This document shows, in pieces, positions 638 through 18,011 of a stretch of DNA of 18,011 bases (position 1 is its first letter; each line of letters opens with the position of its first letter). The notes under the pieces are model-generated. The model was given only the letters and a program-made list of their open reading frames with translations, was not told the DNA's origin and did no database searches. Made by a program: the position numbers and the translations under genes. The stretch comes from a virus (lineage: Duplodnaviria; Heunggongvirae; Uroviricota; Caudoviricetes), in the IMG/VR virus record IMGVR_UViG_2630968500_000004, positions 1 to 18,011 of that record; one strand, written 5' to 3'.

Positions 638-1432
638 GAAAGTGGGTCATGGATCTGCACAGCGAAGCAGCCAAGCGACTTCAGCCTTGCGCCGAACTAC
701 GAGCCCTAGCTAGGGATGGTCTGAAGTAGCCCTGTATTTCCGGCTGACTTCAGCCACTGCTGATTTTGAAAGCGGTGAACCGATCAAAAACGATCGGATC
801 ACCCGCTCATTTCGGTGCTTTCAGCCGTCGCGAGCACCTTGCGACGGCCATTTTCCGCATTACAGGCGCACCTCTCCTGCGCTTGCCAGCAAATGTCGGC
901 GGGCCATCCATAGGTTCGACAGGGCAAACAGCGTCACCAGTTGTGCAGTGTTCCTCACCAGCCCTCGGAAACGTACCTTGGTGTAGCCGAACTGCCGCTT
1001 GATCACGCGAAACGGGGGCTCTACCTTCGCTCGCACTTGCGCCTTGGCCTTCTCGATCTTGCGCTTGGCTTTGTACAGGGCGCTGCGTTTATCGAGCATC
1101 TTGTAGGTGCTGCGGCGTGCTGCGACCTGCCAGATCACTTCTCGGTCGGCATGCTCGGAGCGCTTTTCGACGCCGGTGTAGCCGGCATCGGCGCAGACGA
1201 CGTTCTCGTCGCCGTGCAGCAGCTTGTCGACCTGGGTGACATCCGCCACGGTGGCTGCCGTGCCCACCACGCTGTGTACCAGCCCCGATTCATCATCAAC
1301 GCCGATGTGCGCCTTCATGCCAAAGTAATACTGGTTCCCCTTCTTGGTCTGGTGCATTTTCGGGTCGCGCTTGCCGTCCTGGTTCTTGGATGAACTGGGC
1401 GCGTGGATCAGCGTGGCATCGACGATAGTCCA
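638..1432 (-). mobile_element. IS5-family insertion sequence remnant: transposase C-terminal ~190 codons (860..~1432, minus strand), N-terminal third missing
   Basis: C-terminal half of minus ORF 860..2119 (IVDATLIHAPSSSKNQDGKRDPKMHQTKKGNQYYFGMKAHIGVD ... HPFRVIKRQFGYTKVRFRGL ... LFALSNLW) matches the IS5 transposase DDE domain from about residue 120 onward. No frame upstream encodes the IS5 N-terminal region. GGAAAGTGGGTC at 638-649 loosely resembles IS5-group terminal repeats; this and the exact boundaries are tentative. Confidence 0.65.
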
Positions 1433-2119
1433 TCTTGATAATATCGGGCCGCTCAACGCTTGGGTACGGCACGAAATCCAGCTCGACGATGCGCGTCCAC
1501 TGGATGTCGTTATCCTGTCGTTCGTTGGCTTGTGGCTCCTCGTCGAGCAATGTTGGTGCTTCGATGCGGGTGACGACGAAATCCCGAAACTCTCTACTCT
1601 TGCGATCAAAGGGACGTGCCAGCGCATGCCGGTATCAACCAAAGCAAAGGGCACAATTACCCGCTCGGACTCGCCGCTGCTCATCGAGTAGTAGCGGATG
1701 GCGACGGGTCGCTTAGCGTGGATGCCTCGGCAAATCGTGGCTAACACATCCATCTTGGGAATGCTTAGGGCTGCGGGGGATTCGCATGGTAGCAGCGCCT
1801 GCATTGAGCCGTTCACGCCATCGCCAAAACCGAGAGACAGCGCCGACAGAACGCGCAGCGATGCGTGCTCGAACAACGGTGAGAACTCCTGCCCGATGCG
1901 ATAAATCTTGTTGCTACCATCGAAGGTGATGTTATGCGGCGCAATTTCCCGGTACAAAGCCAAATCGCGTGTCGCCCCTGCCGGAGCCACACCGAAGCGC
2001 TCAATCAGATCAGGGCGTCCGATCTCACCGAAGAAATAGAGCCGAAAATCGATGTAGGCCAACCTCTCGCGCTGGACCAAACTCAAGTCCTCAAGCCGCT
2101 TAGAAAGGGAACCAAGCAT
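1433..2119 (-). pseudogene. Disrupted HTH/WYL-like transcriptional regulator gene, frameshifted and fused to the IS5 remnant
   Basis: N-terminal 175 residues of minus ORF 860..2119 look like an HTH followed by a WYL-type motif (RVIVPFALVDTGMRWHV). After about residue 175 the frame becomes S-rich low-complexity, while an alternative frame (minus ORF 1296..1550) carries protein-like sequence, implying a frameshift between about 1550 and 1600. The junction with transposase sequence is near 1432-1440. Confidence 0.4.
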
Positions 2120-3505: not shown

Positions 3506-4327
3506 ATGACCCGTCTGGCTTCGCGCTTTGGCGCTGCAAACATTATTCGTCGTGACCGTCCGTTAACCCGCGAGGAGCTGTTTCGCGTGGTGCCCAGTGT
3601 GTTCAGCGAGGATAAACATGAATCCCGTAGTGAACGCTACACCTATATACCCACCATCTCCTTGCTGGACAGCCTGCAGCGAGAAGGCTTCCAGCCATTC
3701 TTTGCCTGTCAGACCCGTGTGCGTGATCCGGAGCGTCGCGAACACACCAAGCATATGCTGCGTCTACGGCGTGAGGGACAGATAACCGGTAAGCAGGTGC
3801 CGGAAATAATCCTGCTCAACTCTCACGATGGCAGCAGTTCGTACCAGATGCTGCCGGGACTATTTCGTGCGGTTTGTCAGAACGGGCTCGTCTGCGGTGA
3901 GTCGTTTGGCGAGGTGCGGGTGCCACACAAGGGGGACGTGGTGAGTCAGGTGATTGAAGGCGCGTATGAGGTGCTGGGGATTTTTGACCGGGTGGAGGAG
4001 AAACGGGATGCCATGCAGTCGTTGCTGTTGCCACCCCCGGCACAGCAGGCACTGGCAAAAGCCGCCCTCACATACCGCTTTGGTGAAGACCACCAGCCGG
4101 TGACTGAATCGCAGATCCTCTCCCCTCGCCGCTGGCAGGATGAGAGCAATGACCTGTGGACCACGTACCAGCGTATTCAGGAGAACCTGATTAAGGGCGG
4201 GCTCAGTGGCCGTAATGCCAAAGGAGGACGGTCACATACCCGTGCCGTTCGCGGTATCGACGGGGACGTGAAACTTAACCGGGCACTGTGGGTGATGGCG
4301 GAAGCCCTGCTCACGCAACTGCAGTGA
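3506..4327 (+). CDS. yfjQ: DUF932-family protein (YfjQ-like)
   Basis: Frame of ORF 3491..4327. Start placed at the internal ATG 3506 because GAGGAG lies 7 nt upstream, giving 273 aa, the length of E. coli YfjQ. Position directly downstream of the GTPase matches CP4-57. Confidence 0.7.
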   Translation: MTRLASRFGAANIIRRDRPLTREELFRVVPSVFSEDKHESRSERYTYIPTISLLDSLQREGFQPFFACQTRVRDPERREHTKHMLRLRREGQITGKQVPEIILLNSHDGSSSYQMLPGLFRAVCQNGLVCGESFGEVRVPHKGDVVSQVIEGAYEVLGIFDRVEEKRDAMQSLLLPPPAQQALAKAALTYRFGEDHQPVTESQILSPRRWQDESNDLWTTYQRIQENLIKGGLSGRNAKGGRSHTRAVRGIDGDVKLNRALWVMAEALLTQLQ

Positions 4328-4356
4328 CCGTTTAATGTTGCTGCTTTGTTAATATC

Positions 4357-4483
4357 GGACACCACCTGTCCGCATCGCACCGTGCTGACGGTCCTCACTC
4401 ACCGAGGGAAGGCCTGTAACCCCCGCTGCCTCTGGCTTTTGCAGAAATGAAAAATAGTTTCTGTGGTGTCCATACCCTGTCCG
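4357..4483 (+). promoter_or_regulatory. Inverted repeat GGACACCAC / GTGGTGTCC, each followed by a CTGTCCG direct repeat, upstream of the WYL regulator gene
   Basis: GGACACCAC 4357-4365 and its exact reverse complement GTGGTGTCC 4463-4471; CTGTCCG at 4366-4372 and 4477-4483. Lies in the 216-bp gap before the regulator ATG at 4544. Confidence 0.35.
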
Positions 4484-4543
4484 ACCCCCTCTTTAAAGTA
4501 ATCACATCATTTTCAGTCAGTTAACTTTCACGGAGAACGTCTC

Positions 4544-5245
4544 ATGACACAGGCAGAACGCCGCCATGACCGGCTGGCTGTCAGGCTGTCACTGATAATC
4601 AGCCGTCTGGTGGCAGGGGAAACGCTGAGTGTGCGTAAGCTTGCCGCTGAGTTTGGTGTGTCGGTGCGCACGCTGCGGCGTGATTTTCGTGAGCGGCTGA
4701 TGTATCTGGACCTGGAGTATCAGTCCGGATATTGCCGCTTACGCACTGCGGGCAGTGAGACGCAGATGGTGCCCGACGTGCTTATCTTTGCCCACCGCAG
4801 CGGGATGGCCGGTCTTTTCCCTGGCTTTGACCGTCGTCTGGTAAACGCACTGCTGATGTGCGATGAGTCTCCCTGCGTAATCGCACCCGCCAGTCCGGTT
4901 CCTTCGCCATCAGGCGCATTGTCTTTCTGGCGACTGATTCAGGCCATTACCGGGCGCAGGCGGGTGACTCTGATTGCCGAGGGGCAGCGCTGTGAGCGGC
5001 TGGCTCCCTGCCGGTTACTTATCCACCAGCAGGCCTGGTATCTGGTGGCAGAGCACGACGGACATATCGCCGTATTCTCCCTGGATGAAATCCATCTGAT
5101 TCAGCCTTTGCAGGAGACTTTTCGCCGCAATGACAGTCTGTGTCGCCTGGTTGAAGACCCGGTCTTCATTCAGGCCTTACCCCATTTTCGCTTTATCCAG
5201 CATTCACTGCTTACGTTTGTTCCGGCTGACAGCCCACCGGAATAG
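4544..5245 (+). CDS. yfjR: HTH/WYL-domain transcriptional regulator (YfjR-like)
   Basis: 233 aa. N-terminal HTH-like region ([20 protein letters not shown]) and a WYL motif ([22 protein letters not shown]). GGAG 8 nt upstream of the ATG. Length equals E. coli YfjR. Confidence 0.8.
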
Positions 5246-5285
5246 CGCAGGCGTTGTTATCAACGCGGCAACAGGGAGGAGCCCA

Positions 5286-5522
5286 GTGCCCGTTATTGCC
5301 ATTATCGCCATTGTTATCATCGTCATCATTCTGAACAAAACCGGAGTGTCCGACAGCCTCACGGCCTTGACACTTGCAACCGTTGCCGCACTACTGACGG
5401 GAGGTGGCGCAGCCGGTGCTGCCAGTGTCGCGCTGACGCCGTTCGTCGGCGTGCCAGTGGGTATTTTTGTGGGAATTTATGTCTTTGCCAAAGTGGTTCG
5501 TCTGATTTCAGGGAAAAAATAA
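5286..5522 (+). CDS. Small hydrophobic inner-membrane protein (78 aa)
   Basis: GTG start 5286 preceded by GGGAGGA with 5-nt spacing, within the frame of ORF 5130..5522. Translation is almost entirely hydrophobic (VPVIAIIAIVIIVIIL ... GIFVGIYVFAKVV). Stop TAA overlaps the next ATG (TAATG). Occupies the ypjK position of CP4-57; symbol not asserted. Confidence 0.5.
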   Translation: MPVIAIIAIVIIVIILNKTGVSDSLTALTLATVAALLTGGGAAGAASVALTPFVGVPVGIFVGIYVFAKVVRLISGKK

Positions 5523-5965
5523 TGAAACGTAAAACACTACCTCTGCTGGCGCTGGTTGCCACCTCTCTGTTTCTGAGCGCCTGCGATGACAGCAGTGATG
5601 ACCTCAAAGCTATCAGTAAATTTAAGGACCTCACGCCTCCGCGCTTCAGCGATGTGGTCAGTCGGCAGGATGATGTCAGCGAAGAATGGTCACAGGTTGG
5701 CTTTTCATCAGGTCTCACCCTGCAGGTCTTACGTACCCGTGAGTCGCCCGATGGCTGCGAGGGCGGTAGTTACTACTACCTCGTGGATATGCAGGAAAAA
5801 ACCATCCAGCCGCTGATGAATGCGCTGTGTATTGCCGATAACATCAAACTGGAATACCAGGAGGTGACGGACCCGTATACCAAAGAAAAATACTTTGAGT
5901 ACGCCCATGACGGCAAACTGATGGGGCAGCTACTGATACCCTCGAACCCTGACAATCAGGAATAA
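5522..5965 (+). CDS. yfjS: Lipoprotein (YfjS-like)
   Basis: 147 aa. Signal peptide with lipobox LSAC (MKRKTLPLLALVATSLFLSAC). Length and position match E. coli YfjS. Confidence 0.7.
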   Translation: MKRKTLPLLALVATSLFLSACDDSSDDLKAISKFKDLTPPRFSDVVSRQDDVSEEWSQVGFSSGLTLQVLRTRESPDGCEGGSYYYLVDMQEKTIQPLMNALCIADNIKLEYQEVTDPYTKEKYFEYAHDGKLMGQLLIPSNPDNQE

Positions 5966-5987
5966 AACAACGACAAAGGAGACAAGA

Positions 5988-6455
5988 ATGACAATACTTT
6001 CACTAAGTCGGTTTATGCTGGCGGGTGTACTGCTCGCGAGCTTTAATGCCTCTGCTATCCCGGGGTTCTGGCAGCAGGGTTACGGTCAGGGCAATACGGA
6101 ATACAGCGTGACCGAAGCCAGCGGAAAGACGTTTACCATCAACTGCACAGGGAACCCGGACCAGAATGGTTTCTATCAGCATTCAGTCTTTCTTACCCTT
6201 GCCGATGACAAGATGGTCAGTTCGCACGATGACGACACTACTATCACCGTAGTGATGGATCACCAGCAGTACATTATTCCGTCCAGCCTGGGCTGGCGTA
6301 ACGGCGATAACGCCTGGTTTGACTTCATCAGCAATATCTCTGAGGCCGGGCAGTTCGACGTCTACGTCAATGACCACAAAGCAGGGACCTTCACTGCGGA
6401 CCGGAAGAACACTGAGAAAGTTCTGTCCACTCTCGGAGACTGCAGCAACGACTGA
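5988..6455 (+). CDS. yfjT: Secreted/periplasmic protein (YfjT-like)
   Basis: 155 aa. N-terminal signal peptide ([23 protein letters not shown]). AGGAG upstream. Length and position match E. coli YfjT. Confidence 0.7.
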
Positions 6456-6481
6456 TAGTAGTATCTTCCCCAGCAAATCCA

Positions 6482-6516
6482 CCCCGACAGCTAGCAGGCT
6501 GCCGGGGTTTTCTTTT
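6482..6516 (+). terminator. Rho-independent terminator after the yfjT-like gene
   Basis: 10-bp stem CCCCGACAGC 6482-6491 / GCTGCCGGGG 6498-6507 with one A-C mismatch, followed by TTTTCTTTT. Confidence 0.55.
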
Positions 6517-6531
6517 ATCAGGAGCCCGAAA

Positions 6532-6681
6532 ATGACCCAATCCGTGTTGCTGCCACCGGGGCCTTTCACCCGGAGACAAGCGCAAGCGGTCACTACCACG
6601 TACAGCAATATCACACTCGAAGACGACCAGGGCAGTCACTTCCGTCTGGTGGTTCGTGATACTGAAGGCCGGATGGTCTGA
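6532..6681 (+). CDS. Small hypothetical protein (49 aa)
   Basis: ATG 6532 with GGAG 8 nt upstream, directly after the terminator; in frame with listed ORF 6319..6681. No recognisable family. Confidence 0.3.
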
Positions 6682-6868
6682 CGGGCATGGAACTTTGAGC
6701 CGGATGCCGGTGAAGGTCTTAACCGCTATATCCGCACCTCAGGCATCCGTACAGACACGGCCACCCGCTGATCGCGAAGCATTTACCCGCATTCACCTCC
6801 CCGAACACACTTTATATCCCCATACGCCAGCCATCGCCGCTGGCGTTTTTATTGACGGAGACATACCC

Positions 6869-7327
6869 ATGACAACACAGACGCAGCACGACCTCGCACC
6901 CGCTAACCAACCCGAATTTGAACTGACCGTCACGCCGGTCCCCGATGAACAGCGTATCGATTTCTGGCCACAGTACTTTGGCGCTATCCCGCAGTGGCTA
7001 CTCCTGGAGCCGCATATCTTCGCCTGGATGGACCGCTTCTGTGAGGGCTACAGCGGTGGTATCTGGTCGTTCTACACCCTCAGCAATGGCGGCGCATTTA
7101 TGTCCCCCGAGCCTGACAACGATGAGACATGGCGTCTGTTTAACTGCCTGAACGGTAACGATGCCCAAATGAGTGCAGAAGCAGCAGGTATTGCTGTCTG
7201 CCTGATTGCGTATAGCCACCATGCCTGCCGTACAGAATGTGACGCGATGACCGCACACTATTACCGCCTGCGGGAGTATGCCATGCAACATCCAGAGGCT
7301 CACGCCATTCTGCGTATTATCGACTGA
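6869..7327 (+). CDS. yfjX: Antirestriction-family protein (YfjX-like)
   Basis: Frame of ORF 6656..7327. Start set to the internal ATG 6869 (GGAG 9 nt upstream), giving 152 aa, the length of E. coli YfjX; the upstream extension looks non-coding. Family call is by resemblance, not alignment. Confidence 0.7.
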   Translation: MTTQTQHDLAPANQPEFELTVTPVPDEQRIDFWPQYFGAIPQWLLLEPHIFAWMDRFCEGYSGGIWSFYTLSNGGAFMSPEPDNDETWRLFNCLNGNDAQMSAEAAGIAVCLIAYSHHACRTECDAMTAHYYRLREYAMQHPEAHAILRIID

Positions 7328-7342
7328 CCGAAGGAGCAACAG

Positions 7343-7819
7343 ATGAAACAGCTTTCCTTTTTACCCGGCGAGATGACGCCACAGGACCGGCGTCTCATTC
7401 AGCGGGCGCTCAGGGCTCTGGACCGCCACCTGCATGAGCCCGGCGTAGCCTTCACCTCTACCCACGCCGTACGTGAATGGCTGCGACTGCATATGGCCGC
7501 GCTTGAGCGGGAAGAGTTCCGGGTGTTGTATCTGGACAACCAGAATCAGTTGATTGCCCATGAAACGCTCTTCACCGGCACGATTAACCGCACCGAGGTG
7601 CATCCCCGGGAGGTGGTCAAACGTGCTCTGCACTTCAACGCGGCGGCGGTGATACTCGCGCATAACCATCCTTCCGGCGAGACGACACCTAGCCAGGCCG
7701 ACAAAACCCTCACGCAGCGACTGGTTCAGGTGCTTCAGCTGGTGGATATCCGTGTCCCTGACCATCTGATTGTCGGTGGCAGGCAAATCTATTCGTTCGC
7801 AGAACACGGTCTGCTTTGA
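7343..7819 (+). CDS. yfjY: RadC-like JAB-domain protein (YfjY/YeeS/YkfG family)
   Basis: 158 aa with the JAMM-type motif HNHPSG and the conserved PSQAD segment. AGGAG upstream. Confidence 0.85.
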   Translation: MKQLSFLPGEMTPQDRRLIQRALRALDRHLHEPGVAFTSTHAVREWLRLHMAALEREEFRVLYLDNQNQLIAHETLFTGTINRTEVHPREVVKRALHFNAAAVILAHNHPSGETTPSQADKTLTQRLVQVLQLVDIRVPDHLIVGGRQIYSFAEHGLL

Positions 7820-7827
7820 GGTATTAC

Positions 7828-8049
7828 ATGAAAATTATCAGTAAACGCAGGGCAATGACGATATACCGCCAGCATCCTGAGTCCCGAATCTTTCGCTACT
7901 GCACCGGCAAATACCAGTGGCACGGTAGCGTCTGTCATTACACCGGCAGGGACGTTCCGGATATCGCCGGAGTCCTCGCGGTATACGCCGAACGCCGCCA
8001 GGACCGCAATGGGCCCTATACCTGCCTGATGAGCATCACCCTGAACTGA
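7828..8049 (+). CDS. ypjJ: DUF987-family small protein (YpjJ/YeeT-like)
   Basis: Frame of ORF 7816..8049. ATG 7828 preferred (GAGG upstream; 7816 is a TTG inside the RadC stop region). Sequence pattern RIFRYCTGKYQWHGS ... GPYTCLMSITLN is typical of YeeT/YpjJ proteins. Confidence 0.7.
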   Translation: MKIISKRRAMTIYRQHPESRIFRYCTGKYQWHGSVCHYTGRDVPDIAGVLAVYAERRQDRNGPYTCLMSITLN

Positions 8050-8067
8050 CAATAGTGGAGAACTGTA

Positions 8068-8747
<680 letters not shown>

Positions 8748-8847: not shown

Positions 8848-9275
8848 TACGGACAAACAATCATGCAACCAGAAGTTGAAGTATTAACCGATCATAATGA
8901 GCTAATTTGTTCGAGCTTTATTGAACACATTGCCAACACATTAAATTTAGGAGTGGTGTACAACTAAACCTGCAGCCAAGGATGTATAGTGAGCGAAGCC
9001 CTATCAGGCCTTTTTGGTCAGTAGATAAGATTGATCTTCGTTGATAGAATTTACTTACACCAGCTGTTACATTAAGATAATTTTTTGGTGGGAGAATGAT
9101 AAGATCTTACGTAACAATTTGATTTTAATGGTGCGATAATAGGAACAATACCTAACGATCAATCACCATGATTTAAATGAATTTTTATGCTTTCGATTTT
9201 CTCACATACCCCCAAAAGTACCCCCACATTGTTTTTCGTCTCAATTTTGGGGTATGCGCTTACCAAGAAACACAG

Positions 9276-9464
9276 CTAACGCCGTGGTGATGGTTTGCGC
9301 CAGTGGTACTCTTGCGCGGTCATGCGTTGACGATGGCGCTCTTTTGCTGCGAGTGTACCGGCGACTCTACACCGCAATTCAAGCTTGTCAGCAGCATTTA
9401 GCGTAACCCCCTGCTGAGTTGCCATCTCGACTATAGCAGACTCGATCACTTCTGATTTCAGCAT
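9276..9464 (-). CDS. Small hypothetical protein (62 aa)
   Basis: Frame of minus ORF 9276..9473. ATG 9464 preferred because GAGGTGG lies 8 nt upstream. Last gene of the minus-strand operon. No family recognised. Confidence 0.4.
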   Translation of the reverse strand: MLKSEVIESAIVEMATQQGVTLNAADKLELRCRVAGTLAAKERHRQRMTAQEYHWRKPSPRR

Positions 9465-9515
9465 GAAAACCACCTCGCAAATATTGTTATATGTGACATG
9501 TCACCGAGCACACTA

Positions 9516-9989
9516 TTAGCCCATAAACCGACGATAAGCCTCTCCGGCTTCTTCTGCGGTAAGGCTTGTGGTCTCCGCCCTGATCGGCCCGCCGTCCTTA
9601 CCTGTAGTCTCGACTTTCAGCTTATTGGTGTAAGCATCTCCGCACTCTTTTGCGGCCTGTTCGATCAGCTGCGCCGTCAATGCGTAGTTTTTTATCGCCT
9701 CGGCTCGGTTTGCCATACGATCCAGCATTCGCAACCGGTACGCTTTGTTAGCGATCGGGATATCGGATATTTCACTCTGGAACCGGGCGCGAGTGTGGTT
9801 AAAGAGCTCGACCCACTTTTTGCTAAGATTTTTAGCCATCGAATTTTCAGGGTTGTAGGCCGATATCTGCTGCCGGGTAACAACGATACCAAAATCTTGT
9901 TTTACAAGTTCGACAATTCTTGATGGAGGTTCATAGCAGGCTAAAGATTGAATAATCATCACCTTAGCCATAGTTGGTAATGCTGCCAT
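9516..9989 (-). CDS. Phage small-terminase-like / DUF2280-like protein (tentative)
   Basis: 157 aa. N-terminal segment (IIQSLACYEPPSRIVELVKQDFGIVVTRQQISAY) resembles the HTH-type N-terminus of DUF2280 / small-terminase-like phage proteins as I remember them. Recognition is from memory and unverified. Confidence 0.45.
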   Translation of the reverse strand: MAALPTMAKVMIIQSLACYEPPSRIVELVKQDFGIVVTRQQISAYNPENSMAKNLSKKWVELFNHTRARFQSEISDIPIANKAYRLRMLDRMANRAEAIKNYALTAQLIEQAAKECGDAYTNKLKVETTGKDGGPIRAETTSLTAEEAGEAYRRFMG

Positions 9990-10081
9990 CGCTCACCTTT
10001 TGACAAAGGAAATCAAAGTAGCGCACTGAGTTCTGACCTCCCGCGCCGCTACTTAAAGTTACATATCACGCCATCTGACCG

Positions 10082-10261
10082 TCACCCTACGTTATTTCGC
10101 ATGGTTTCCGCTGTGCGAGATTCTTCGCTGATCGCACTCTCACCGAAGCTGCCAATACCATCTGGTTCCGGCTGCCCGTTGATATCATCCAGCCAGGTAC
10201 GAACCTTACCATTCTGGCTGGCTCCGCTTTCTTCTGGTTTCAGTTTTTCAATATTGCTCAT
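10082..10261 (-). CDS. Small acidic hypothetical protein (59 aa), absent from the ORF track
   Basis: Hand translation of the minus strand: MSNIEKLKPEESGASQNGKVRTWLDDINGQPEPDGIGSFGESAISEESRTAETMRNNVG. Its ATG (10261-10259) overlaps the spike-gene stop TGA (10260-10258) as ATGA, suggesting translational coupling. Confidence 0.3.
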   Translation of the reverse strand: MSNIEKLKPEESGASQNGKVRTWLDDINGQPEPDGIGSFGESAISEESRTAETMRNNVG

Positions 10262-10920
10262 TGTGGTTTTCCTGTGTTGCTGCCGCCTGATTGTACACCG
10301 CCGTGGGTATGGTTAATCTGGCTGATACCGTTGGCCGTTTGGTCGCCAGTGGAAGTGATCGTTCCGTTTACCTGCACGGGCCCGTTAAGGGTGATTTGAG
10401 AGCTGGTAATCGTAATGGCTCCACCAGCGGCCACTTCTACAAATGCCGCGCCATCATCGGTTCGCAGCTGCGCGGCGCTGGTACTGATACCGCTGATTTT
10501 CTTCACCTGCGACTGCGGGCCAGGAATCACGAACGCATCCGACAGATCTAAAACACGCCCGTCAGCTCGCTCCTGCACACCGCCGTTTTGCCACCAGAAA
10601 TCAATCGAACGCGAAGAGAATACGATAAGGCACTCATCACCTTCTTTGATAGGGAAGGTCAGGGTCACGCCACCGCCACGAGGGAACACAACTGGCAAAT
10701 CAACCAGAATAGGATACCTAACTGATTCATACTGATAGTCTTCCTCGACGGTGCCGGGTTTCGTCATTCTGGCAATTATTGCTACGTCGACGTCACAGGT
10801 CACTGTTTCCGGGTCAAATGAACGGATAATGCCTGGTAAGGCATTCTTTACCGCAGCATTGCTATTGCTCTGTATTTGGTTAACCGTATCTTGCTCATTG
10901 GCAGGTCGAATAAATGGCAT
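10258..10920 (-). CDS. Phage baseplate central spike protein, gpV / Gp138-type
   Basis: Frame of minus ORF 10258..10965. N-terminal LPGIIRSFDPETVTCDVDVAI is an OB-fold-like spike signature; C-terminus INHTHGGVQSGGSNTGKP carries the HxH apex motif typical of P2 gpV-type spikes. Start chosen at ATG 10920 (GGGG 5 nt upstream); the alternative TTG at 10965 would overlap the preceding gene. Confidence 0.6.
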   Translation of the reverse strand: MPFIRPANEQDTVNQIQSNSNAAVKNALPGIIRSFDPETVTCDVDVAIIARMTKPGTVEEDYQYESVRYPILVDLPVVFPRGGGVTLTFPIKEGDECLIVFSSRSIDFWWQNGGVQERADGRVLDLSDAFVIPGPQSQVKKISGISTSAAQLRTDDGAAFVEVAAGGAITITSSQITLNGPVQVNGTITSTGDQTANGISQINHTHGGVQSGGSNTGKPQ

Positions 10921-10930
10921 AGCTACCCCA

Positions 10931-11278
10931 TCAACCTGATATACGTTTACAGTCAAACGAGCCAATAATGCGAGGCTCGTCCATATTGCCGCGAATCAAC
11001 TCAACATTAAGCCAGCGTTTATTGCTTCCGTTCGGGTGAATGTATTCAAAGCCGTACATATTCCCATCACGCGCAGGCATCAATGTCATCTCAACTTTGA
11101 GTCCATCATCACCGAGTTCAGTAATTTTTTGAGATGTAACCATTTCCCCGTTAACTCTTGTCATTTCGCCGACTTTGGCAACAAGATTGAAGTTTCCACA
11201 TTGTGAAATTACTGTTCCAGTATTTGCTAAAGCATTAGTGGAAAGTATCACGGATAAGAAAATGAATGTTTTTTTCAT
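10931..11278 (-). CDS. Secreted protein with a cleavable signal peptide (115 aa), low-GC insert
   Basis: N-terminus MKKTFIFLSVILSTNALA followed by NTG: a classic Sec signal with an AxA site and no lipobox cysteine. Codon usage is visibly AT-richer than both flanking genes. Two cysteines in the mature part. Confidence 0.6.
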   Translation of the reverse strand: MKKTFIFLSVILSTNALANTGTVISQCGNFNLVAKVGEMTRVNGEMVTSQKITELGDDGLKVEMTLMPARDGNMYGFEYIHPNGSNKRWLNVELIRGNMDEPRIIGSFDCKRISG

Positions 11279-11282
11279 GCAG

Positions 11283-12374
11283 TTACCACTTATTTAGTGT
11301 TTCGCCAGAATAAATATCAGTAGCGCCCCGAGCTTCACAAGCCAGATCCATATACCATGCCTGCCCTCTGGTATCGCCGGTATAATTTATATACCGAACC
11401 TTATAAACACCGTCAGTTGCAATGCTGGCAGGTTGAGAGGTTGGTGGCGCATCAATCAGGTTTCCATTGGCATCCTTGATCTTCGTTATTGGTACAAGGT
11501 TTCCATCAATATCTTTTTCGACAAATCGCCCACTAAATATATCCTGATTCGACAATGGATTGCGGTACACCGACGCCTGATCCAACTGAATAAGCCCATT
11601 CAGTTGAATACTTGAATTGATTAAACAGCGTACATTAACCCCAGCTCCGATAGTTTGCTGAGGCATGCCCACCAGCCCAGTATTTGAGTTTAATACTACG
11701 GCCTGATGTGCCGCTGTATCTCTGGCAATCATGTCGACCTTGCCGTAACTAAACTGCCAGGTAGCCTTACACTGCGCAGCTACCTCATCAAGATAGTTAT
11801 GCACGTAACCAAAGAAAGCTCGCCCGCGAGGAAATACCGTTGATGGAAAAACCGGAGTGATACCGCGCCCGATACCATAGGGTTCCAAGCTCGTCATGAG
11901 AAGGTTATAGACGTCTTCAGTGGTGTAGCCTTTCTGAATGGTCGTACTGACGAACGCGCTGACAAACGCTTCTTCTGAATCACAGGCCTGCACGAGAATC
12001 CAGGAATCGACGAGATTATCCTTACCGGTCACTGTAAAACGGATATCACCGCTAAAGATCATCCCATAGTTTTGCCCATTGGTTTGACCTACCTGGTCAG
12101 GTGAAATCTCCCGGACGACACCAACTTCACTCTCCTGAACATCCTTAGCCAGGCCATCATATCCCGCTATCAGAACAATCTTGGCAAACTCACGCTGCAT
12201 AATACGGTTCTGAGTGGTCGGTGAAAGGTTGTAGATCTTGACCGTCGCGACAGCTGGCCATTTGTTATCGTTACGCTCTATATCAAAGGTAACTTTGAAA
12301 TCACTAAGGCTAATTCCTTTGCCATTCTCATCGATGAGCTGTAGCTCGAAATGGCGCATCCAGTTATATGACAT
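11283..12374 (-). CDS. Phage tail/baseplate protein, possibly a gpD-like hub (tentative)
   Basis: 363 aa, with an AGGAA ribosome-binding site. N-terminal beta-rich pattern (HFELQLIDENGKGISLSDFKVTFDIERNDNKWPAVATVKIYNLSP) resembles the N-terminal domain of P2 gpD / Mu gp44 hub proteins, and it sits upstream of the spike gene as in Mu-like tail modules. The coding call is solid; the hub assignment is weak. Confidence 0.5.
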   Translation of the reverse strand: MSYNWMRHFELQLIDENGKGISLSDFKVTFDIERNDNKWPAVATVKIYNLSPTTQNRIMQREFAKIVLIAGYDGLAKDVQESEVGVVREISPDQVGQTNGQNYGMIFSGDIRFTVTGKDNLVDSWILVQACDSEEAFVSAFVSTTIQKGYTTEDVYNLLMTSLEPYGIGRGITPVFPSTVFPRGRAFFGYVHNYLDEVAAQCKATWQFSYGKVDMIARDTAAHQAVVLNSNTGLVGMPQQTIGAGVNVRCLINSSIQLNGLIQLDQASVYRNPLSNQDIFSGRFVEKDIDGNLVPITKIKDANGNLIDAPPTSQPASIATDGVYKVRYINYTGDTRGQAWYMDLACEARGATDIYSGETLNKW

Positions 12375-12379
12375 AGTCG

Positions 12380-12547
12380 TTATTCCTGAATTGATGCCAG
12401 CGCTTTCGCCACCAGCCCACGGGCAATTTGATGGACAGACGGCGCTACGCCAATATCGGAGCGCTGACGTTCGCGCTCCTGGATCTTGCAGATTGCGGCG
12501 AACTGGTCGCCAGAGAGTAATACCGGCTTAACGTTTGGCTTTTTCAT
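12380..12547 (-). CDS. Small basic hypothetical protein (55 aa)
   Basis: Frame of minus ORF 12380..12640. ATG 12547 preferred (GGAGTG 6 nt upstream). Overlaps the 3' end of the upstream gene by about 20 nt. Confidence 0.4.
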   Translation of the reverse strand: MKKPNVKPVLLSGDQFAAICKIQERERQRSDIGVAPSVHQIARGLVAKALASIQE

Positions 12548-12716
12548 CCTGTTCACTCCAGAACCGTGCGTTTGCTTCGTTGAGGTTTGCATTGTTGCGA
12601 CACTCGCGATCGAAGTTATTGCGAGCCTTTGCCGCCTCAAGGTCTTGCCGGGTCAGCATCGGACGGCGTGTACTCTGTGGGTTGCCTGCTGCTAATTTTG
12701 GGTTGTATGTAGCCAT
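12528..12716 (-). CDS. Small hypothetical protein (62 aa)
   Basis: Frame of minus ORF 12528..12725. ATG 12716 preferred: strong TAAGGAGTG ribosome-binding site 8 nt upstream. Confidence 0.45.
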   Translation of the reverse strand: MATYNPKLAAGNPQSTRRPMLTRQDLEAAKARNNFDRECRNNANLNEANARFWSEQDEKAKR

Positions 12717-12728
12717 GCTGATCACTCC

Positions 12729-13280
12729 TTACCTTGTGCGGTGCCAGAAGCTGGCATTATCGGTGTTGATCTGGCGGAGAGAGTCGCCAGTGGTGAGAGT
12801 CTTCGGCGTTACGTTATTGGCCTTCATGTAGTCGCCCACCTGCTCCAGCACGTCGATAGCCTGATCCAGCGGGATTTCTGACAGCGGGGTCGGGTGTACG
12901 GCGCTGAACGCCTCAACAGGGGCATAGCGCAGCACATCGAGCGCGACAATGCGCGGGTCGGCGTCGGGCAGCGCTGAATCGTACTTTGGCGCTACGGCGC
13001 GTACCAGCCGCATGAACTCGGCATTCATGGCCGTTGGTGCTGTAGACGTTGGAGAAGCGCCGCTACCACTTCGGGTAATCATGTCACTATCGCGGGTGTA
13101 CATACGACGCAAACGGTCGCCGGTTGCAATGCGTGTAGCGCGTTCCTGTTTAAGCGTTGTTGCAAGATTTGCAATGATAGCCGCTACCTGTGCGTTACAG
13201 GCAAATACGGCTTCGCTTCCATCCGCGAACGTGACCACCCCGCTTTCACCAGATATAGAGATGTTTGAGATTTCTTGCAT
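12729..13280 (-). CDS. Hypothetical protein (183 aa), first gene of the minus-strand operon
   Basis: ATG at 13280-13278; long ORF with no recognisable family by eye. Followed by tightly spaced or overlapping downstream genes. Confidence 0.55.
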   Translation of the reverse strand: MQEISNISISGESGVVTFADGSEAVFACNAQVAAIIANLATTLKQERATRIATGDRLRRMYTRDSDMITRSGSGASPTSTAPTAMNAEFMRLVRAVAPKYDSALPDADPRIVALDVLRYAPVEAFSAVHPTPLSEIPLDQAIDVLEQVGDYMKANNVTPKTLTTGDSLRQINTDNASFWHRTR

Positions 13281-13314
13281 GGTTCAGAACCTTAGTAATT
13301 GCTCGAATTCTGAT

Positions 13315-13333
13315 CATTGCACAAATTGCAATG
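13315..13333. promoter_or_regulatory. Operator-like palindrome CATTGCA-n5-TGCAATG upstream of the minus-strand operon
   Basis: 7-bp arms at 13315-13321 and 13327-13333. ATTGCACA recurs at 13406-13413. Located 35-55 bp upstream of the 183-aa gene start. Confidence 0.3.
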
Positions 13334-13428
13334 TTAGTAAATATCGTTGCGAATATTGAAATAATAAATCAACCTGTTACTATGGATATGAGTCACTATT
13401 GTGTGATTGCACAGCATGGTTAACAAAA

Positions 13429-13462
13429 GCCCGCGCCTCTCCAAGCGTGGGCTTTTTCTTTT
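13429..13462. terminator. Rho-independent terminator, potentially bidirectional
   Basis: 8-bp stem GCCCGCGC 13429-13436 / GCGTGGGC 13445-13452 (one G-U wobble), loop CTCTCCAA, TTTTTCTTTTC downstream and ACAAAA upstream. Confidence 0.5.
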
Positions 13463-13842
13463 CTGGTCAGCAACGTGTCTCTTTCCCTCATCGGTTACTT
13501 AAAAAATCGATTCCACGCCCGGTATACCCTTCAATCCCTCAAGCCATGCGCTTGCCAAGCCCATCATGTATACAAAACCGGGCAAAAATACATTGAGGGG
13601 TATACAGCCATACCCCAGCAGTGGCAGGGGTTAGGAGGCATTGATTATCAATGCGTGGGGTGTGATAACTTTTTGTGGATTTATTCAGCAAAAACACATC
13701 GGTGTATCCGGTGATGCGGTCAGAGATCTGACACGTTCCCCCCCCTGGTGATCGGCGGAAAAGTCCGCCGATGCTGATGCTGGCCTAACCTGCTTTCGAT
13801 GTTTTCGTTTTAGAGAAAACGCTATAGATAAACAAAAACATG

Positions 13843-14133
13843 TTGGTTCAGTCGGTTCAGTTGGTTCAATTTGTAAAGATTGTTGTTTTATAAGGTTTAT
13901 TTATTGATGAGTGAACCAACAAAGCCATGTTTTGAACCAACAATCGCTATTTTCGTGTTGGTTCAGTGGGAAAGATTTACAGGCCAGCCAGAAAAGGGTG
14001 TTGGTTCAATAGCGGTATTTGTTGGTTCAAAATGGGCGTTTGTTGGTTCAGTGTTGGTTCACTTATGAACATATAAGTATATTAAATACATACAGTTATC
14101 TTAATTATGTAGTTACTGAACCAACTGAACCAA
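13843..14133. repeat. Iteron array: 12 copies of the octamer TTGGTTCA / TGAACCAA (one degenerate); candidate origin of replication
   Basis: Forward copies at 13843, 13853 (cGGTTCA, degenerate), 13861, 13958, 14001, 14022, 14043, 14054. Reverse copies at 13912, 13933, 14117, 14126. Irregular spacing, AT-rich context, immediately 3' of the primase-helicase gene. Confidence 0.7.
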
Positions 14134-14158
14134 CAAAAAACAATCTCGTGTGTGTGCT

Positions 14159-16840
14159 TTATTCTTCGCCCTCTATCTCGTCGGGTCGTAGCTGGAGCAC
14201 ATAAACGTTTATCTGGCGTCCATCAATTCGTGGGGATTTACGCTGATACCCCCTTCCGCTGGCTGGCGGTTTCAGCACCCCAGCTCCGGCAAGCACACGG
14301 GCAAACTGTTTAGCATTAAAGCCCTGCGCTATCTCCTTTTCGAACGCAGCCGGAAAGGTGTAGAACACTACGGGGCTTTCGTCATGCTCGCCTTTCTGAC
14401 GGTATCCGGCTAAATCCCGGATAGGCATGTCAGCCGGGCTATACGGGAATGGCGCGAAACGGCTCAGGCCGTAGGCATTAAGAAACGCCTCCGCCTGCTC
14501 AATGATCTGCTTATGCTCACGGTTCCCCGTGCCGAACTCTTTTACCCAGGCGTTAAAGCCATGCTGGATGGCGTCCCGGCTTTCCTGCTCCCCCCAGCCA
14601 GTGACAGGCATCCCGAGCACCAACGCCGCCTCCAGAATAGCGAACCGCTCGCCTACACGATGAACCTGTTCGCCATAATCAGCAGGGATAAGACTACGCC
14701 AGCGCTCCTGCGCCGCTTTGACAGCTTGTTTCGCCTCCTGCTGGTGGCCTGCAAGCCATTTAATCCATTCACGGCCTGCGGCTCCGTGGTTCGTCTGGTA
14801 TGCCTCTTTGAGTGCGTCAGCGTGCTGCTTGCCGTTCTGGTACTCATGGTGCGATACGGATTTCTCCATCGGTAAATTAAGCAGTCGCACCAGTTGCCCG
14901 GCCTTAACTTTCAGCCCACCAGCAGAAAGAAACGTCTCAATGTCCATTTCCCCGGTACTGATCGCCACGGTACGCCAGCGCTTTAACTCGCGGTTGCCTC
15001 CCTCCTTCGCCCCCTGTAGCTTTCCGGCACCGTTAAACAGCGTGTAAGCAGACGTAGCAACGTCTTTCGCGCTGCTACCCTGCCCCACTTCGTCCAGGGG
15101 TAACAGGCTATCGTTATGCGCTTCCGCTTCGTTGGCGATACCCAAAGCAGTACCGTACCAGGTGAGGCGCAGGGCATCAGGTTCACCGTAAAGGCTGCTG
15201 GCTATATTGGCGGTCGTCGTCTTACCAGCACTGGACTGTTCGAAAAGGTGAACGCCGAAACCGTCAGCACCAACAAGCCCGATCAGCGGCGCAGACAGCG
15301 CAGCAGCAACGCCCAGCATCATTGACGGGTTGCCCAGCGCAAGGCGCGCCACCGAATCACGCCAGCTTTCCGGCGTTCCACTGACGGTATAGCCACCAGC
15401 CGCAGCACTCCGACCACTGAATAACAGCGGTATCTCTGGCTCACCAATAACATCACCATCCGGCATGATGTACGCCCCGCTGTGCCAGCCTGTGGTGTGG
15501 CTGATCTGCCATTCCTTGCCGCTACCGGTTCGCTGTAGCCAGTCGGCCAGAATCGCCCGCAACGATGGTTTGGTCGTTACACTGACACCGCCGTTTTTCA
15601 GCGTGCGCCATCCCTCACGGTCGCCAATGTCCTCCCATGGAAGCGCCCGGGTAACTTGCCCCCGGTTGCCGGGGACGTCCCAACGCAGGATCAGAAAGCG
15701 CTGTCTGGCGTTATCACTCCCCGCACCAGCAATCTCCAGCGGAGAGCATAGCCACGCCTCGGTATTGATAATTTCCCCTGTGTCTTTATCCACTTTCGGG
15801 GTGATCCAGTGAATGCCATCCGCACGGCTCTCTACTCGCGGTTTCAGATCGTCGTCGATACCGGGTTTTTTCTTGCCGCCGTCGATAGCTGTCAGTGTCG
15901 CGCCCACTTTCTTACCCTCCGGTTGGTACATTGAGTCGTTAAATGCTGCTGTGGCCGCTTCGAGGCCGTATTGCTGGTGGTAGTCGTTCCAGTCCGCTTT
16001 ATAGTCCACTGGTGGCATGGAAACCCAGCCAGAAACGGCTTTCGCTGCTTTCTCTGCGGCCTCCTTGCCAGTGTTAACTTTCACTCCTCCAATTCCGTCA
16101 CTTTCGCCGCTCTGATCGTTATCTGCGGCAATGATGATCTGCGCGTTCGGGTAGCGCTGACGCATCGCCATAGCAACAGCGGGGAGGTTCCCGGCGTCAA
16201 TTGCGGCCACCGCCAGCGCATCAGGTCGCATATGCTGACCGGATATGACTGTCGCCAGCCCTTCCCCGATCAGCACTACATTCGGCGTATCAACGTTACC
16301 CAGGGCAAAGAAAGATCCTTTTTTTACCGTGCCAGCCACCAGCCGCTTACTACCATCAGGTTTAATGACCTGCGCCCCGGTAATCGCCCCGGCTACGTTC
16401 GTCAATGTGATCAACATCGAGCCATCAGACAGCAGCGGGAAGGGGCGCTGTAGCCCCTTTGATGTGAGGTATTCCGATTGACCTGATACAGCCTTGGCAG
16501 CCAGCGCAGCAACCTTAGCCACGATATCGGTTTGAGGCTTCTCTCTGGCTGGCTGCTGTTCCGGCAGCGGCAGCGCCATCACTTCCGCCACCATCACAGC
16601 TGCCTCACGCGCACCGCACTGCCTGACCTTCATCACCAGATCCAGCCCCGTACCTGCGCCACAATGTGAGCAAAAGTAAGTACCTCGCCCGTCCTTGTCG
16701 TCAAAGCGGTAACGGGTATTGCCACCGCAAGCCGGGCATGGTCCCTCGCTGCGATTGGTTGGAATACCGAGCCGTTCAAAAATTGGCTGCCAGTGGCCGG
16801 TCGCCTTGATGCGCACATCGTTTATAAAATTATCTTTCAC
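14159..16840 (-). CDS. P4-alpha-like DNA primase-helicase (zinc-binding primase domain, Toprim, C-terminal ATPase)
   Basis: 893 aa. N-terminal zinc ribbon CPACGG ... CSHCG, Toprim-like acidic motif IIIAADNDQSGESDG, P-loop-like SSAGKTT in the C-terminal half. Architecture typical of satellite/island primase-helicases. Confidence 0.85.
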   Translation of the reverse strand: MKDNFINDVRIKATGHWQPIFERLGIPTNRSEGPCPACGGNTRYRFDDKDGRGTYFCSHCGAGTGLDLVMKVRQCGAREAAVMVAEVMALPLPEQQPAREKPQTDIVAKVAALAAKAVSGQSEYLTSKGLQRPFPLLSDGSMLITLTNVAGAITGAQVIKPDGSKRLVAGTVKKGSFFALGNVDTPNVVLIGEGLATVISGQHMRPDALAVAAIDAGNLPAVAMAMRQRYPNAQIIIAADNDQSGESDGIGGVKVNTGKEAAEKAAKAVSGWVSMPPVDYKADWNDYHQQYGLEAATAAFNDSMYQPEGKKVGATLTAIDGGKKKPGIDDDLKPRVESRADGIHWITPKVDKDTGEIINTEAWLCSPLEIAGAGSDNARQRFLILRWDVPGNRGQVTRALPWEDIGDREGWRTLKNGGVSVTTKPSLRAILADWLQRTGSGKEWQISHTTGWHSGAYIMPDGDVIGEPEIPLLFSGRSAAAGGYTVSGTPESWRDSVARLALGNPSMMLGVAAALSAPLIGLVGADGFGVHLFEQSSAGKTTTANIASSLYGEPDALRLTWYGTALGIANEAEAHNDSLLPLDEVGQGSSAKDVATSAYTLFNGAGKLQGAKEGGNRELKRWRTVAISTGEMDIETFLSAGGLKVKAGQLVRLLNLPMEKSVSHHEYQNGKQHADALKEAYQTNHGAAGREWIKWLAGHQQEAKQAVKAAQERWRSLIPADYGEQVHRVGERFAILEAALVLGMPVTGWGEQESRDAIQHGFNAWVKEFGTGNREHKQIIEQAEAFLNAYGLSRFAPFPYSPADMPIRDLAGYRQKGEHDESPVVFYTFPAAFEKEIAQGFNAKQFARVLAGAGVLKPPASGRGYQRKSPRIDGRQINVYVLQLRPDEIEGEE

Positions 16841-17055
16841 GGCTTAACCTCATCCACTGATTGAAACTCTGTTAAAAAACGCAAATCCGACTGCATACAC
16901 GGCGATGAGTAGCCATCACGATAAAATGTCACTCTGTTGAATCGGTAGCTTTCCACCGTCACCAGACAACCCCGCTTATCCTTCCATTTATCGCCTTTAC
17001 GAATCACAGGGCGAGCGAAGCCACTGGCAAGAGAGCCAGTTAATTTCTTTTCCAT
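16837..17055 (-). CDS. Hypothetical protein (72 aa) overlapping the primase start
   Basis: Stop overlaps the primase ATG; AAAGG upstream. No family recognised; not AlpA-like by eye. Confidence 0.45.
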   Translation of the reverse strand: MEKKLTGSLASGFARPVIRKGDKWKDKRGCLVTVESYRFNRVTFYRDGYSSPCMQSDLRFLTEFQSVDEVKP

Positions 17056-17057
17056 GG

Positions 17058-17354
17058 TTATTTACCTTTCGTCATCTGACGACACTGATATTCCGCATTG
17101 GCTGCGGTATCAGATAACGCTCGCGCCAGCGGCATTAATTCCATCAGCATCCCACCAATATCTCGGAAATCTGTTGCTGACGGCTCATATTCACCGTTCT
17201 CAGCACCACCAGCGTAGAACATCATCTTACCTACAGCGGCGATCCCATTCAGGATGCTATCGGCGGCGCACTCAGCACGGGAAGACAGCATCTGGAGATC
17301 AGATTTATCGGTATCAGGGAAATCGGTGCGCACAAAATCGTTGTAAAGGTTCAT
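17058..17354 (-). CDS. Hypothetical protein (98 aa) coupled to the recombinase gene
   Basis: ATG overlaps the recombinase stop (ATGA); GGAGGT 5 nt upstream. No family recognised. Confidence 0.45.
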   Translation of the reverse strand: MNLYNDFVRTDFPDTDKSDLQMLSSRAECAADSILNGIAAVGKMMFYAGGAENGEYEPSATDFRDIGGMLMELMPLARALSDTAANAEYQCRQMTKGK

Positions 17355-18011
17355 GCTGTGACCTCCATAGCCAGACGTGACTGGATCGCGGATGCTTTAC
17401 TACCGAGCTGTAAATAGGTGCGGGTAATAGCCGGGTTGCTATGCCCCAGCATTTCAGAAGCCACCAGCAAGCCTTGCTCACCGCCTGCTGACATGAGGTT
17501 AAACGCGGCTATTTTGCGACTGGAGTATGCGCTAAGGCGCAGCTTGGCGTTAATGAAACGGGTGAACCACTGCATAACATCATGCAGCTTGCGCCAGATA
17601 GTCTGGCGAGTAACGCTACCTTCCAGACATTGGCAACGGTTACTTTCGATTTGAGAGCGGGAAAATACCAGGTCGTCCTCTACCAGATTCCGATCCTGAC
17701 GGTCACGCAGCCGCTTGATGATGCCTGGCGGTAACTGCTTGGTGTCGTGTTTGACGTCAGCCTTTGCCACCAGCTCGAATACTATGGCCTGTTCTTCGCC
17801 GTTCATGTCGGCGGCCAGTTCGTCACAACCGATGCTATCCCACTTCATGTAGGCGATATGATCAGCGGCCATCCGGGCGGCATCCTTACGTTGCTGGCGC
17901 ACAATCTCGATACCTTTGCGGGTTGCCCGCGCTTCGGCGGCTTTGGTTTGCTTGGCAACGATAATTGTCGCCTGCCCCGTTTCCCAATTGACGCAGGAAT
18001 AGCGGAGGGTG
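17351..18011 (-). CDS. Tyrosine-type site-specific recombinase/integrase, C-terminal catalytic part (5' end lies outside the window)
   Basis: Reading frame stays open to the window edge; the listed start at 17902 is an internal GTG. C-terminus has a tyrosine-recombinase-like pattern (LGHSNPAITRTYLQ, with an upstream conserved-arginine region). Family call by eye. Confidence 0.55.
   Translation of the reverse strand, partial: TLRYSCVNWETGQATIIVAKQTKAAEARATRKGIEIVRQQRKDAARMAADHIAYMKWDSIGCDELAADMNGEEQAIVFELVAKADVKHDTKQLPPGIIKRLRDRQDRNLVEDDLVFSRSQIESNRCQCLEGSVTRQTIWRKLHDVMQWFTRFINAKLRLSAYSSRKIAAFNLMSAGGEQGLLVASEMLGHSNPAITRTYLQLGSKASAIQSRLAMEVTA

Follow-up and report, generated by a model that had tools for sequence, protein, structure and literature searches.

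A short open reading frame in a CP4-6-type prophage remnant of Escherichia coli G5 is very probably a nonsense pseudogene allele of ykfF

The window, i.e., the whole stretch of 18,011 nucleotides that was analysed, corresponds to positions 3700964-3718971 of the genome of Escherichia coli strain G5 (NZ_CP060065.1), which was isolated from the faeces of a healthy person in Germany. Among 5426 complete genomes, no other reaches a coverage of 80% of the window. The locus is a CP4-6-type prophage remnant beside the tRNA-Thr gene thrW and proA, with the gene order GTPase, DUF932, yfjR, ypjK, yafY/yfjS, ykfB, ykfF, yafX, ykfG, ykfH, yafW, and ykfI. The succession ykfB-ykfF-yafX, within a CP4-type island at thrW, was found in G5, S43, E. 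coli C, K-12, and other strains. At the left end of the window, positions 1-635 hold the 3' end of an S1C serine-protease gene; in G5, a heat-resistance island (hdeD-GI, trx-GI, kefB-GI, psiE-GI, htpX) ends with this gene, and an IS5 transposase fragment (860-1435, minus strand) abuts the CP4-6 remnant. This junction of serine protease, IS5, and CP4-6 (L003, 1-7435) is present at ~98% identity in dozens of other genomes among the matches listed. At the other side, the similarity to other strains ends at position 9144, inside a 16-nt imperfect copy of the 3' end of thrW (TGGTGC-GATAATAGGA, with one base missing), and positions 9129-18011 are occupied by a second integrative element, which forms a tandem with the CP4-6 remnant and separates it from the real thrW. 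This element encodes a TOPRIM-DUF927 primase (14159-16840, minus strand), DUF4222, DUF2280, a spike-like protein, and a tyrosine recombinase, the gene for which starts at 17351 (minus strand) and extends beyond the end of the window; a second tyrosine recombinase and an Icd-like protein are encoded just past this end. It looks like an element of the phage-satellite type, and its arrangement was seen in G5 only among the 5426 complete genomes.

Within the remnant, ykfB (YfjT/YkfB family; 5988-6455, plus strand; taken from the list of open reading frames (ORFs) and from the PGAP annotation of G5 and of identical loci) is followed by a terminator-like structure at 6481-6516 (plus strand), in which a hairpin (6481-6508) runs into TTTTCTTTT (6508-6516). 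RNA folding gives the hairpin 11 pairs, with one internal mismatch and a centroid energy of -18.7 kcal/mol; its z-score relative to shuffled sequences is modest (-1.4). It was absent from the output of a simple consensus terminator scan of 5900-7400, probably on account of the internal mismatch, and therefore had to be confirmed via folding. A Shine-Dalgarno sequence, AGGAG (6520-6524, plus strand), can be read 7 nt 5' of an ATG at 6532-6534, which opens the ORF reported in the earlier note (6532-6681, plus strand): 49 sense codons in translation, closed by a TGA at 6679-6681. A second terminator-like hairpin, this time returned by the consensus scan (6824-6846, with 8 pairs, 6 of them G-C, and a T-run to 6851; plus strand), lies between ykfF and the antirestriction gene yafX (6869-7327, plus strand; Pfam Antirestrict, E 1.8e-39; also annotated by PGAP). 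The earlier note had described a 49-codon ORF with a good ribosome-binding site, placed between a terminator and the antirestriction gene, and all of this is borne out. The two hairpins bracket ykfF as though it were a small transcription unit of its own, and the consensus scan of 5900-7400 found no sigma-70-like promoter. Thirty ORFs of at least 40 aa overlap the region 5000-8500, so that a length of 49 codons is not by itself above chance; the ORF was counted as real because of its match to DUF905.

This match (Pfam PF06006) reaches 82.4 bits for the 49-aa product (E 2.3e-23) and covers profile positions 2-45 of 70. The TGA is followed, in the same frame, by 29 further sense codons (RAWNFEPDAGEGLNRYIRTSGIRTDTATR) and then by another TGA at 6769-6771. 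If a Trp is assumed at codon 50, the resulting 79-aa product scores 145.6 bits (E 4.4e-43) over positions 2-70 of 70; both products exceed the Pfam gathering threshold of 22.3 bits. The 49-codon ORF thus holds an incomplete DUF905 domain, profile positions 46-70 being encoded 3' of the TGA, in the 29 in-frame codons that the earlier reading had overlooked. The repaired 79-aa sequence is 100% identical to that of PDB entry 2HJJ ('hypothetical protein ykfF', E. coli). On sequence grounds, the 49-codon ORF is best identified as the 5' part of ykfF (Pfam DUF905 / UPF0401), a known gene of 79 codons. The whole of it spans 6532-6771 (plus strand), i.e., 79 codon positions and the original stop, interrupted by the TGA at codon 50; the former codons 51-79 and the original stop (6682-6771, plus strand) are in frame and unmutated, and they encode the invariant residues R51, W53, and E56 together with helix alpha2. 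RefSeq/PGAP describes 6532-6771 in G5 as 'ykfF, DUF905 domain-containing protein, pseudogene, internal stop' (H4P49_RS17885), with coordinates and interpretation that do not differ from ours. It gives the same 'internal stop' for ykfF in S43, CFSAN064036, CP61, 2017.01.04CC, LD39-1, Z142-6, 2017.17.01CC, and GmM062. The allele, which we call W50*, is thus already known, in that RefSeq flags its internal stop.

An intact ykfF of 79 aa (WP_000194654.1) occupies the same position in E. coli C, K-12 MG1655, and 1008S13. The contention that in K-12 this position is taken by degraded genes is wrong for the orthologous locus, at which MG1655 has the intact 79-codon gene between ykfB and yafX; the statement may, we presume, reflect a confusion with the paralogous CP4-57 island. 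The YkfF of K-12 (b0249; UPF0401 / PF06006; NMR structure 2HJJ; CP4-6) is likewise encoded in the order ykfB-ykfF-yafX by thrW and is identical to the repaired protein, whereas in G5 codon 50 is TGA instead of TGG and the product ends after residue 49. The suggestion of a 'surviving small gene' was therefore right in one respect, as this is the genuine coding sequence of a small gene with its own ribosome-binding site, and wrong in another, as the gene is a truncated ykfF of 79 codons and not a gene of 49. Relative to the K-12 island, that of the window is more decayed at ykfF and less decayed at yfjR: the yfjR-like WYL/DeoR regulator (4544-5245) is intact in the window (233 aa), and the CP4-6 copy of K-12 is annotated as a truncated pseudogene.

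The lesion itself is a single base. The premature stop at codon 50 (6679-6681, plus strand) stands in the context GGATGGTC-TGA-CGGGCATGG, where base 6681 is A (G in the intact allele, which has TGG for Trp50) and the next base is C. An alignment of 6456-6880 with E. coli C (425 bases) shows no difference except this G>A at 6681, and codons 51-79 are identical to those of the intact allele, which shows the mutation to be young. An in-frame stop is found where the orthologs have a sense codon, and the ancestral frame is still recognisable 3' of it, as in a nonsense pseudogene. We consider it very probable that the locus in E. coli G5 is a nonsense pseudogene allele of ykfF that results from the single G>A at 6681.

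The conservation of the family shows what is missing from the shortened product. We retrieved 66 DUF905 loci from genomes of Enterobacterales, and 51 unique copies of near-full length went into a codon alignment, in which codon 50 is TGG in 49 and TGA in none. Mean amino-acid conservation is higher at codons 50-60 (WRAWNFEPDAG; 0.91) than at codons 1-49 (0.73). In an alignment of 31 proteins, W50, R51, W53, and E56 are invariant, and the 49-aa product lacks all four, i.e., 4 of the 12 invariant residues, as well as the best-conserved motif. The median pairwise dN/dS (Nei-Gojobori) is 0.21 for codons 1-49 and 0.31 for codons 51-79, values that are descriptive, since the pairs are not phylogenetically independent. 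From these alignments, both halves of ykfF, and so all 79 codons, appear to be under purifying selection. The analysis of conservation and synonymous substitutions that had been proposed for this ORF hence finds the frame conserved in related islands, as a frame of 79 codons. The best 120 of 332 homolog clusters contain mostly proteins of 76-79 aa, and no form of ~49 aa is among them.

The structure of the family tells where the protein is cut. We used an AlphaFold (AF2) model of a full-length homolog that is 97% identical (P0001; mean pLDDT 81.5), together with an alignment. The model has a helix at 14-23, strands at 27-31, 37-42, and 48-53, and a second helix at 59-70, and it agrees with the NMR structure 2HJJ with an rmsd of 1.9 A (TM 0.74/0.87). 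According to model and alignment, the stop at codon 50 falls within strand beta3 (48-53) and deletes helix alpha2 (59-70). The fragment retains helix alpha1 and strands beta1 and beta2, and its beta3 is reduced to two residues, the first ones of the strand. If the model is a good guide, such a fragment would be unable to form the small single-domain alpha-beta3-alpha fold.

Decay of DUF905 genes is commonplace in CP4-like islands, where we found many broken copies (L023, L036, L055, L058, L060, L070-L075). These other decayed copies from Enterobacterales share the family and the type of island, with other lesions at other positions: a stop at codon 24 in Citrobacter freundii (L023), a stop at codon 15 in Rahnella (L036), N-terminal truncations (L055, L058, L070, and L071), and C-terminal remnants (L072-L075). 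Unlike them, the W50* lesion is specific to a sub-population of E. coli. YkfF proteins with 99-100% identity (L010, L012-L016) are encoded in assemblies labelled Mixta tenebrionis, Erwinia aeris, Citrobacter murliniae, and Kluyvera intermedia, and in a 2.8-kb contig of a 'Bacillota' MAG, with near-identical reading frames upstream. Either the CP4-6-type island has been transferred horizontally very recently, or the assemblies suffer from contamination and mis-binning.

How frequent is the allele, and how did it arise? The locus is present in 472 complete E. coli records, 21 of which match a 61-nt query centred on the stop exactly. The remaining 451, K-12 included, have at least one mismatch within the 61 nt, and the non-exact records that were opened (E. 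coli C, K-12, and 1008S13) all have TGG at codon 50. The exact 49-aa product is encoded on at least 1000 public contigs, under the names 'hypothetical protein' or 'DUF905 family protein'. W50* is a real and common allele, and a minority polymorphism in E. coli. Its carriers fall into two groups: group A (G5, S43, and seven others) has 6481A/6795A/7953C and a distinct upstream block at 4225-5605, and group B (ten records) has 6481C/6795C/7953T and an upstream block that resembles that of E. coli C. Between ~5820 and 9144, group A equals E. coli C except for the TGA, and G5 adds one private SNP at 8142. GmM062 has an intermediate haplotype (TGA, 6481A, 6795C, 7953T), which argues that the group-B SNPs accumulated after the TGA had arisen on a segment like that of E. 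coli C. A search of all complete genomes with a group-B haplotype restored to TGG returned no record with group-B flanks and TGG. To judge from these haplotypes, a single origin of the TGA followed by recombination upstream would be sufficient, and two independent G>A events are also possible. The frequency of W50* and its presence on two haplotypes of the island suggest that it is not strongly deleterious; a selected loss of ykfF, or an independent recurrence of the mutation, is conceivable.

Variation around the allele has some further features. Among the 12 strains compared, SNPs at 4225-5605 form a few block patterns (67, 29, and 16 sites), which reveal a mosaic, recombinant upstream half of the island, and the segment 5820-9144 is nearly invariant in most strains. 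The group-B change A>C at 6481 (L004-L008), which was seen in TGA carriers only, costs the hairpin 5' of ykfF its outermost A-U pair, probably without consequence. One of the 11 aligned TGA carriers, 2017.17.01CC, has a further change within the gene, the non-synonymous A>G at 6736 (T69A) in the part after the stop, in a sample too small to judge whether constraint is relaxed.

We can thus propose a simple scenario. A G>A transition at 6681 would have turned the Trp50 codon of ykfF (TGG) into TGA. For ribosomes that start at the intact Shine-Dalgarno sequence and ATG, translation would mostly end at codon 50 and give a fragment of 49 residues, which would be unable to adopt the YkfF fold and would presumably be non-functional, making the locus a recent nonsense pseudogene allele. 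A single mutation on a segment like that of E. coli C, with the usual gain of SNPs and recombination upstream thereafter, would account for the allele. Nothing in the data that we gathered contradicts a nonsense mutation. Low-frequency read-through of the UGA-C may still make W50* a severe hypomorph rather than a null allele, and this deserves consideration first among the alternatives.

If the stop is leaky, the UGA-C of codon 50 would occasionally be decoded by the near-cognate Trp-tRNA, and the allele would be a hypomorph making YkfF at a few percent of its normal level at most. As the ancestral residue is Trp, read-through would yield exactly the wild-type protein, and ykfF would be a down-tuned gene, possibly selected as such. 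The perfect integrity of the 29 downstream codons and of the original stop would fit such a gene, as would the wide distribution of the allele; the intact codons are, however, equally expected after any recent nonsense mutation, and 2017.17.01CC already has its amino-acid change in the part after the stop. UGA-C is also reportedly the weakest stop context of E. coli, according to Poole, Brown and Tate in 1995. The efficiency of read-through is a further matter. Trp-tRNA competes with RF2 at UGA, and reporters in K-12 BW25113 gave ~2% read-through at 37 C and ~4% at 25 C (PMC10570021), but these figures come from K-12, whose RF2 is a variant of reduced function, and with the RF2-B variant, NudL and PheL, which are natural products of read-through, were no longer seen (PMC5373646). 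If these observations extend to wild isolates, read-through in a strain such as G5 would probably be much lower than in K-12. The case does resemble the natural UGA read-through of nudL and pheL, with an in-frame UGA that Trp-tRNA can decode and an open frame behind it (PMC10570021, PMC5373646). Yet the stops of nudL and pheL are native and their extension products were demonstrated in K-12, whereas the UGA of ykfF is a recent mutation inside a domain, and its read-through is expected to be weak with a fully active RF2. Moreover, no stimulatory RNA element was found with Rfam at 6300-7000. On balance, we regard a leaky stop as unlikely. A stronger version, in which W50* is maintained, and possibly selected, as a leaky allele that supplies wild-type YkfF at ~1% of the normal dose, seems to us very unlikely; were it true, the spread of the allele (two haplotypes, at least 1000 contigs) would reflect selection for reduced YkfF and not neutral drift.

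It is highly improbable that the 49-residue fragment is a functional small protein, i.e., a shorter isoform consisting of helix alpha1 and strands beta1-beta2. Such a protein could be made, given the intact start codon and Shine-Dalgarno sequence, it persists in many strains, and several annotation pipelines have deposited it as a 49-aa protein. These points are to be set against the loss of a third of the invariant residues, of the best-conserved motif, of most of beta3, and of helix alpha2; against the homolog clusters, where the short form has no counterpart among the best 120; and against the purifying selection on the C-terminal codons of the family.

Hardly any credence can be given to the other suggestion of the earlier note, a leader peptide or attenuator that would control the downstream antirestriction gene yafX. 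The layout is evocative, with a short ORF between two terminator-like hairpins (6481-6516 and 6824-6851) upstream of yafX, but the suggestion is unsupported: the family of the ORF encodes a folded protein, the structure of which is solved (2HJJ), and is under purifying selection at the amino-acid level over all 79 codons, and in most genomes the ORF has 79 codons, not 49. Between its end and the hairpin at 6824 lie 143 nt (53 nt in the intact allele), so that a ribosome on the ORF could not modulate this hairpin. Finally, that the TGA is a sequencing error or a programmed selenocysteine codon, for which there is nothing beyond the presence of an in-frame TGA, can be dismissed, as the same base occurs in 21 independently assembled complete records and the product on at least 1000 contigs, and as the region 6300-7000 has no SECIS or other Rfam family at E<=10 (only sub-threshold chance matches, far below gathering scores), the homologous codon is Trp and not Cys or Sec, and TGA is the minority, derived state.

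Among the uncharacterised genes of K-12, ykfF figures on the 'y-ome' list (PMC11551758), and our literature searches found no functional study of ykfF or DUF905. It matches phrog_8779 in PHROGs ('unknown function') and no family in NCBIfam. A fold search of the PDB with the model gave 2HJJ itself as the only significant hit; its weak similarities (E>=0.2) to small phage proteins (Xp10 P7, T7 Gp1.2, and SPO1 Acb4) constitute no evidence. On conjugative plasmids, DUF905 genes reportedly lie close to psiB and psiA, which are anti-SOS genes (PMC12826799). In the island, ykfF lies directly upstream of the antirestriction gene, after which come genes for RadC/JAB, DUF987, and a type IV toxin-antitoxin pair. 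Purely by guilt by association, this neighbourhood suggests a role in the establishment of incoming mobile DNA.

What had been a candidate for a new small gene or a leader peptide is, according to our study, the known gene ykfF with a premature stop, and the removal of the candidate matters little in itself. It provides a worked example of why one should read through an in-frame stop before calling a short ORF a small gene. For the biology of E. coli, W50* would represent a natural knock-out or knock-down of the uncharacterised gene ykfF. E. coli C, which has TGG at codon 50, and GmM062, the nearest TGA carrier that was compared, differ at 6 sites over 4.85 kb, and near-isogenic TGG/TGA pairs such as these could serve in the search for a phenotype of DUF905.
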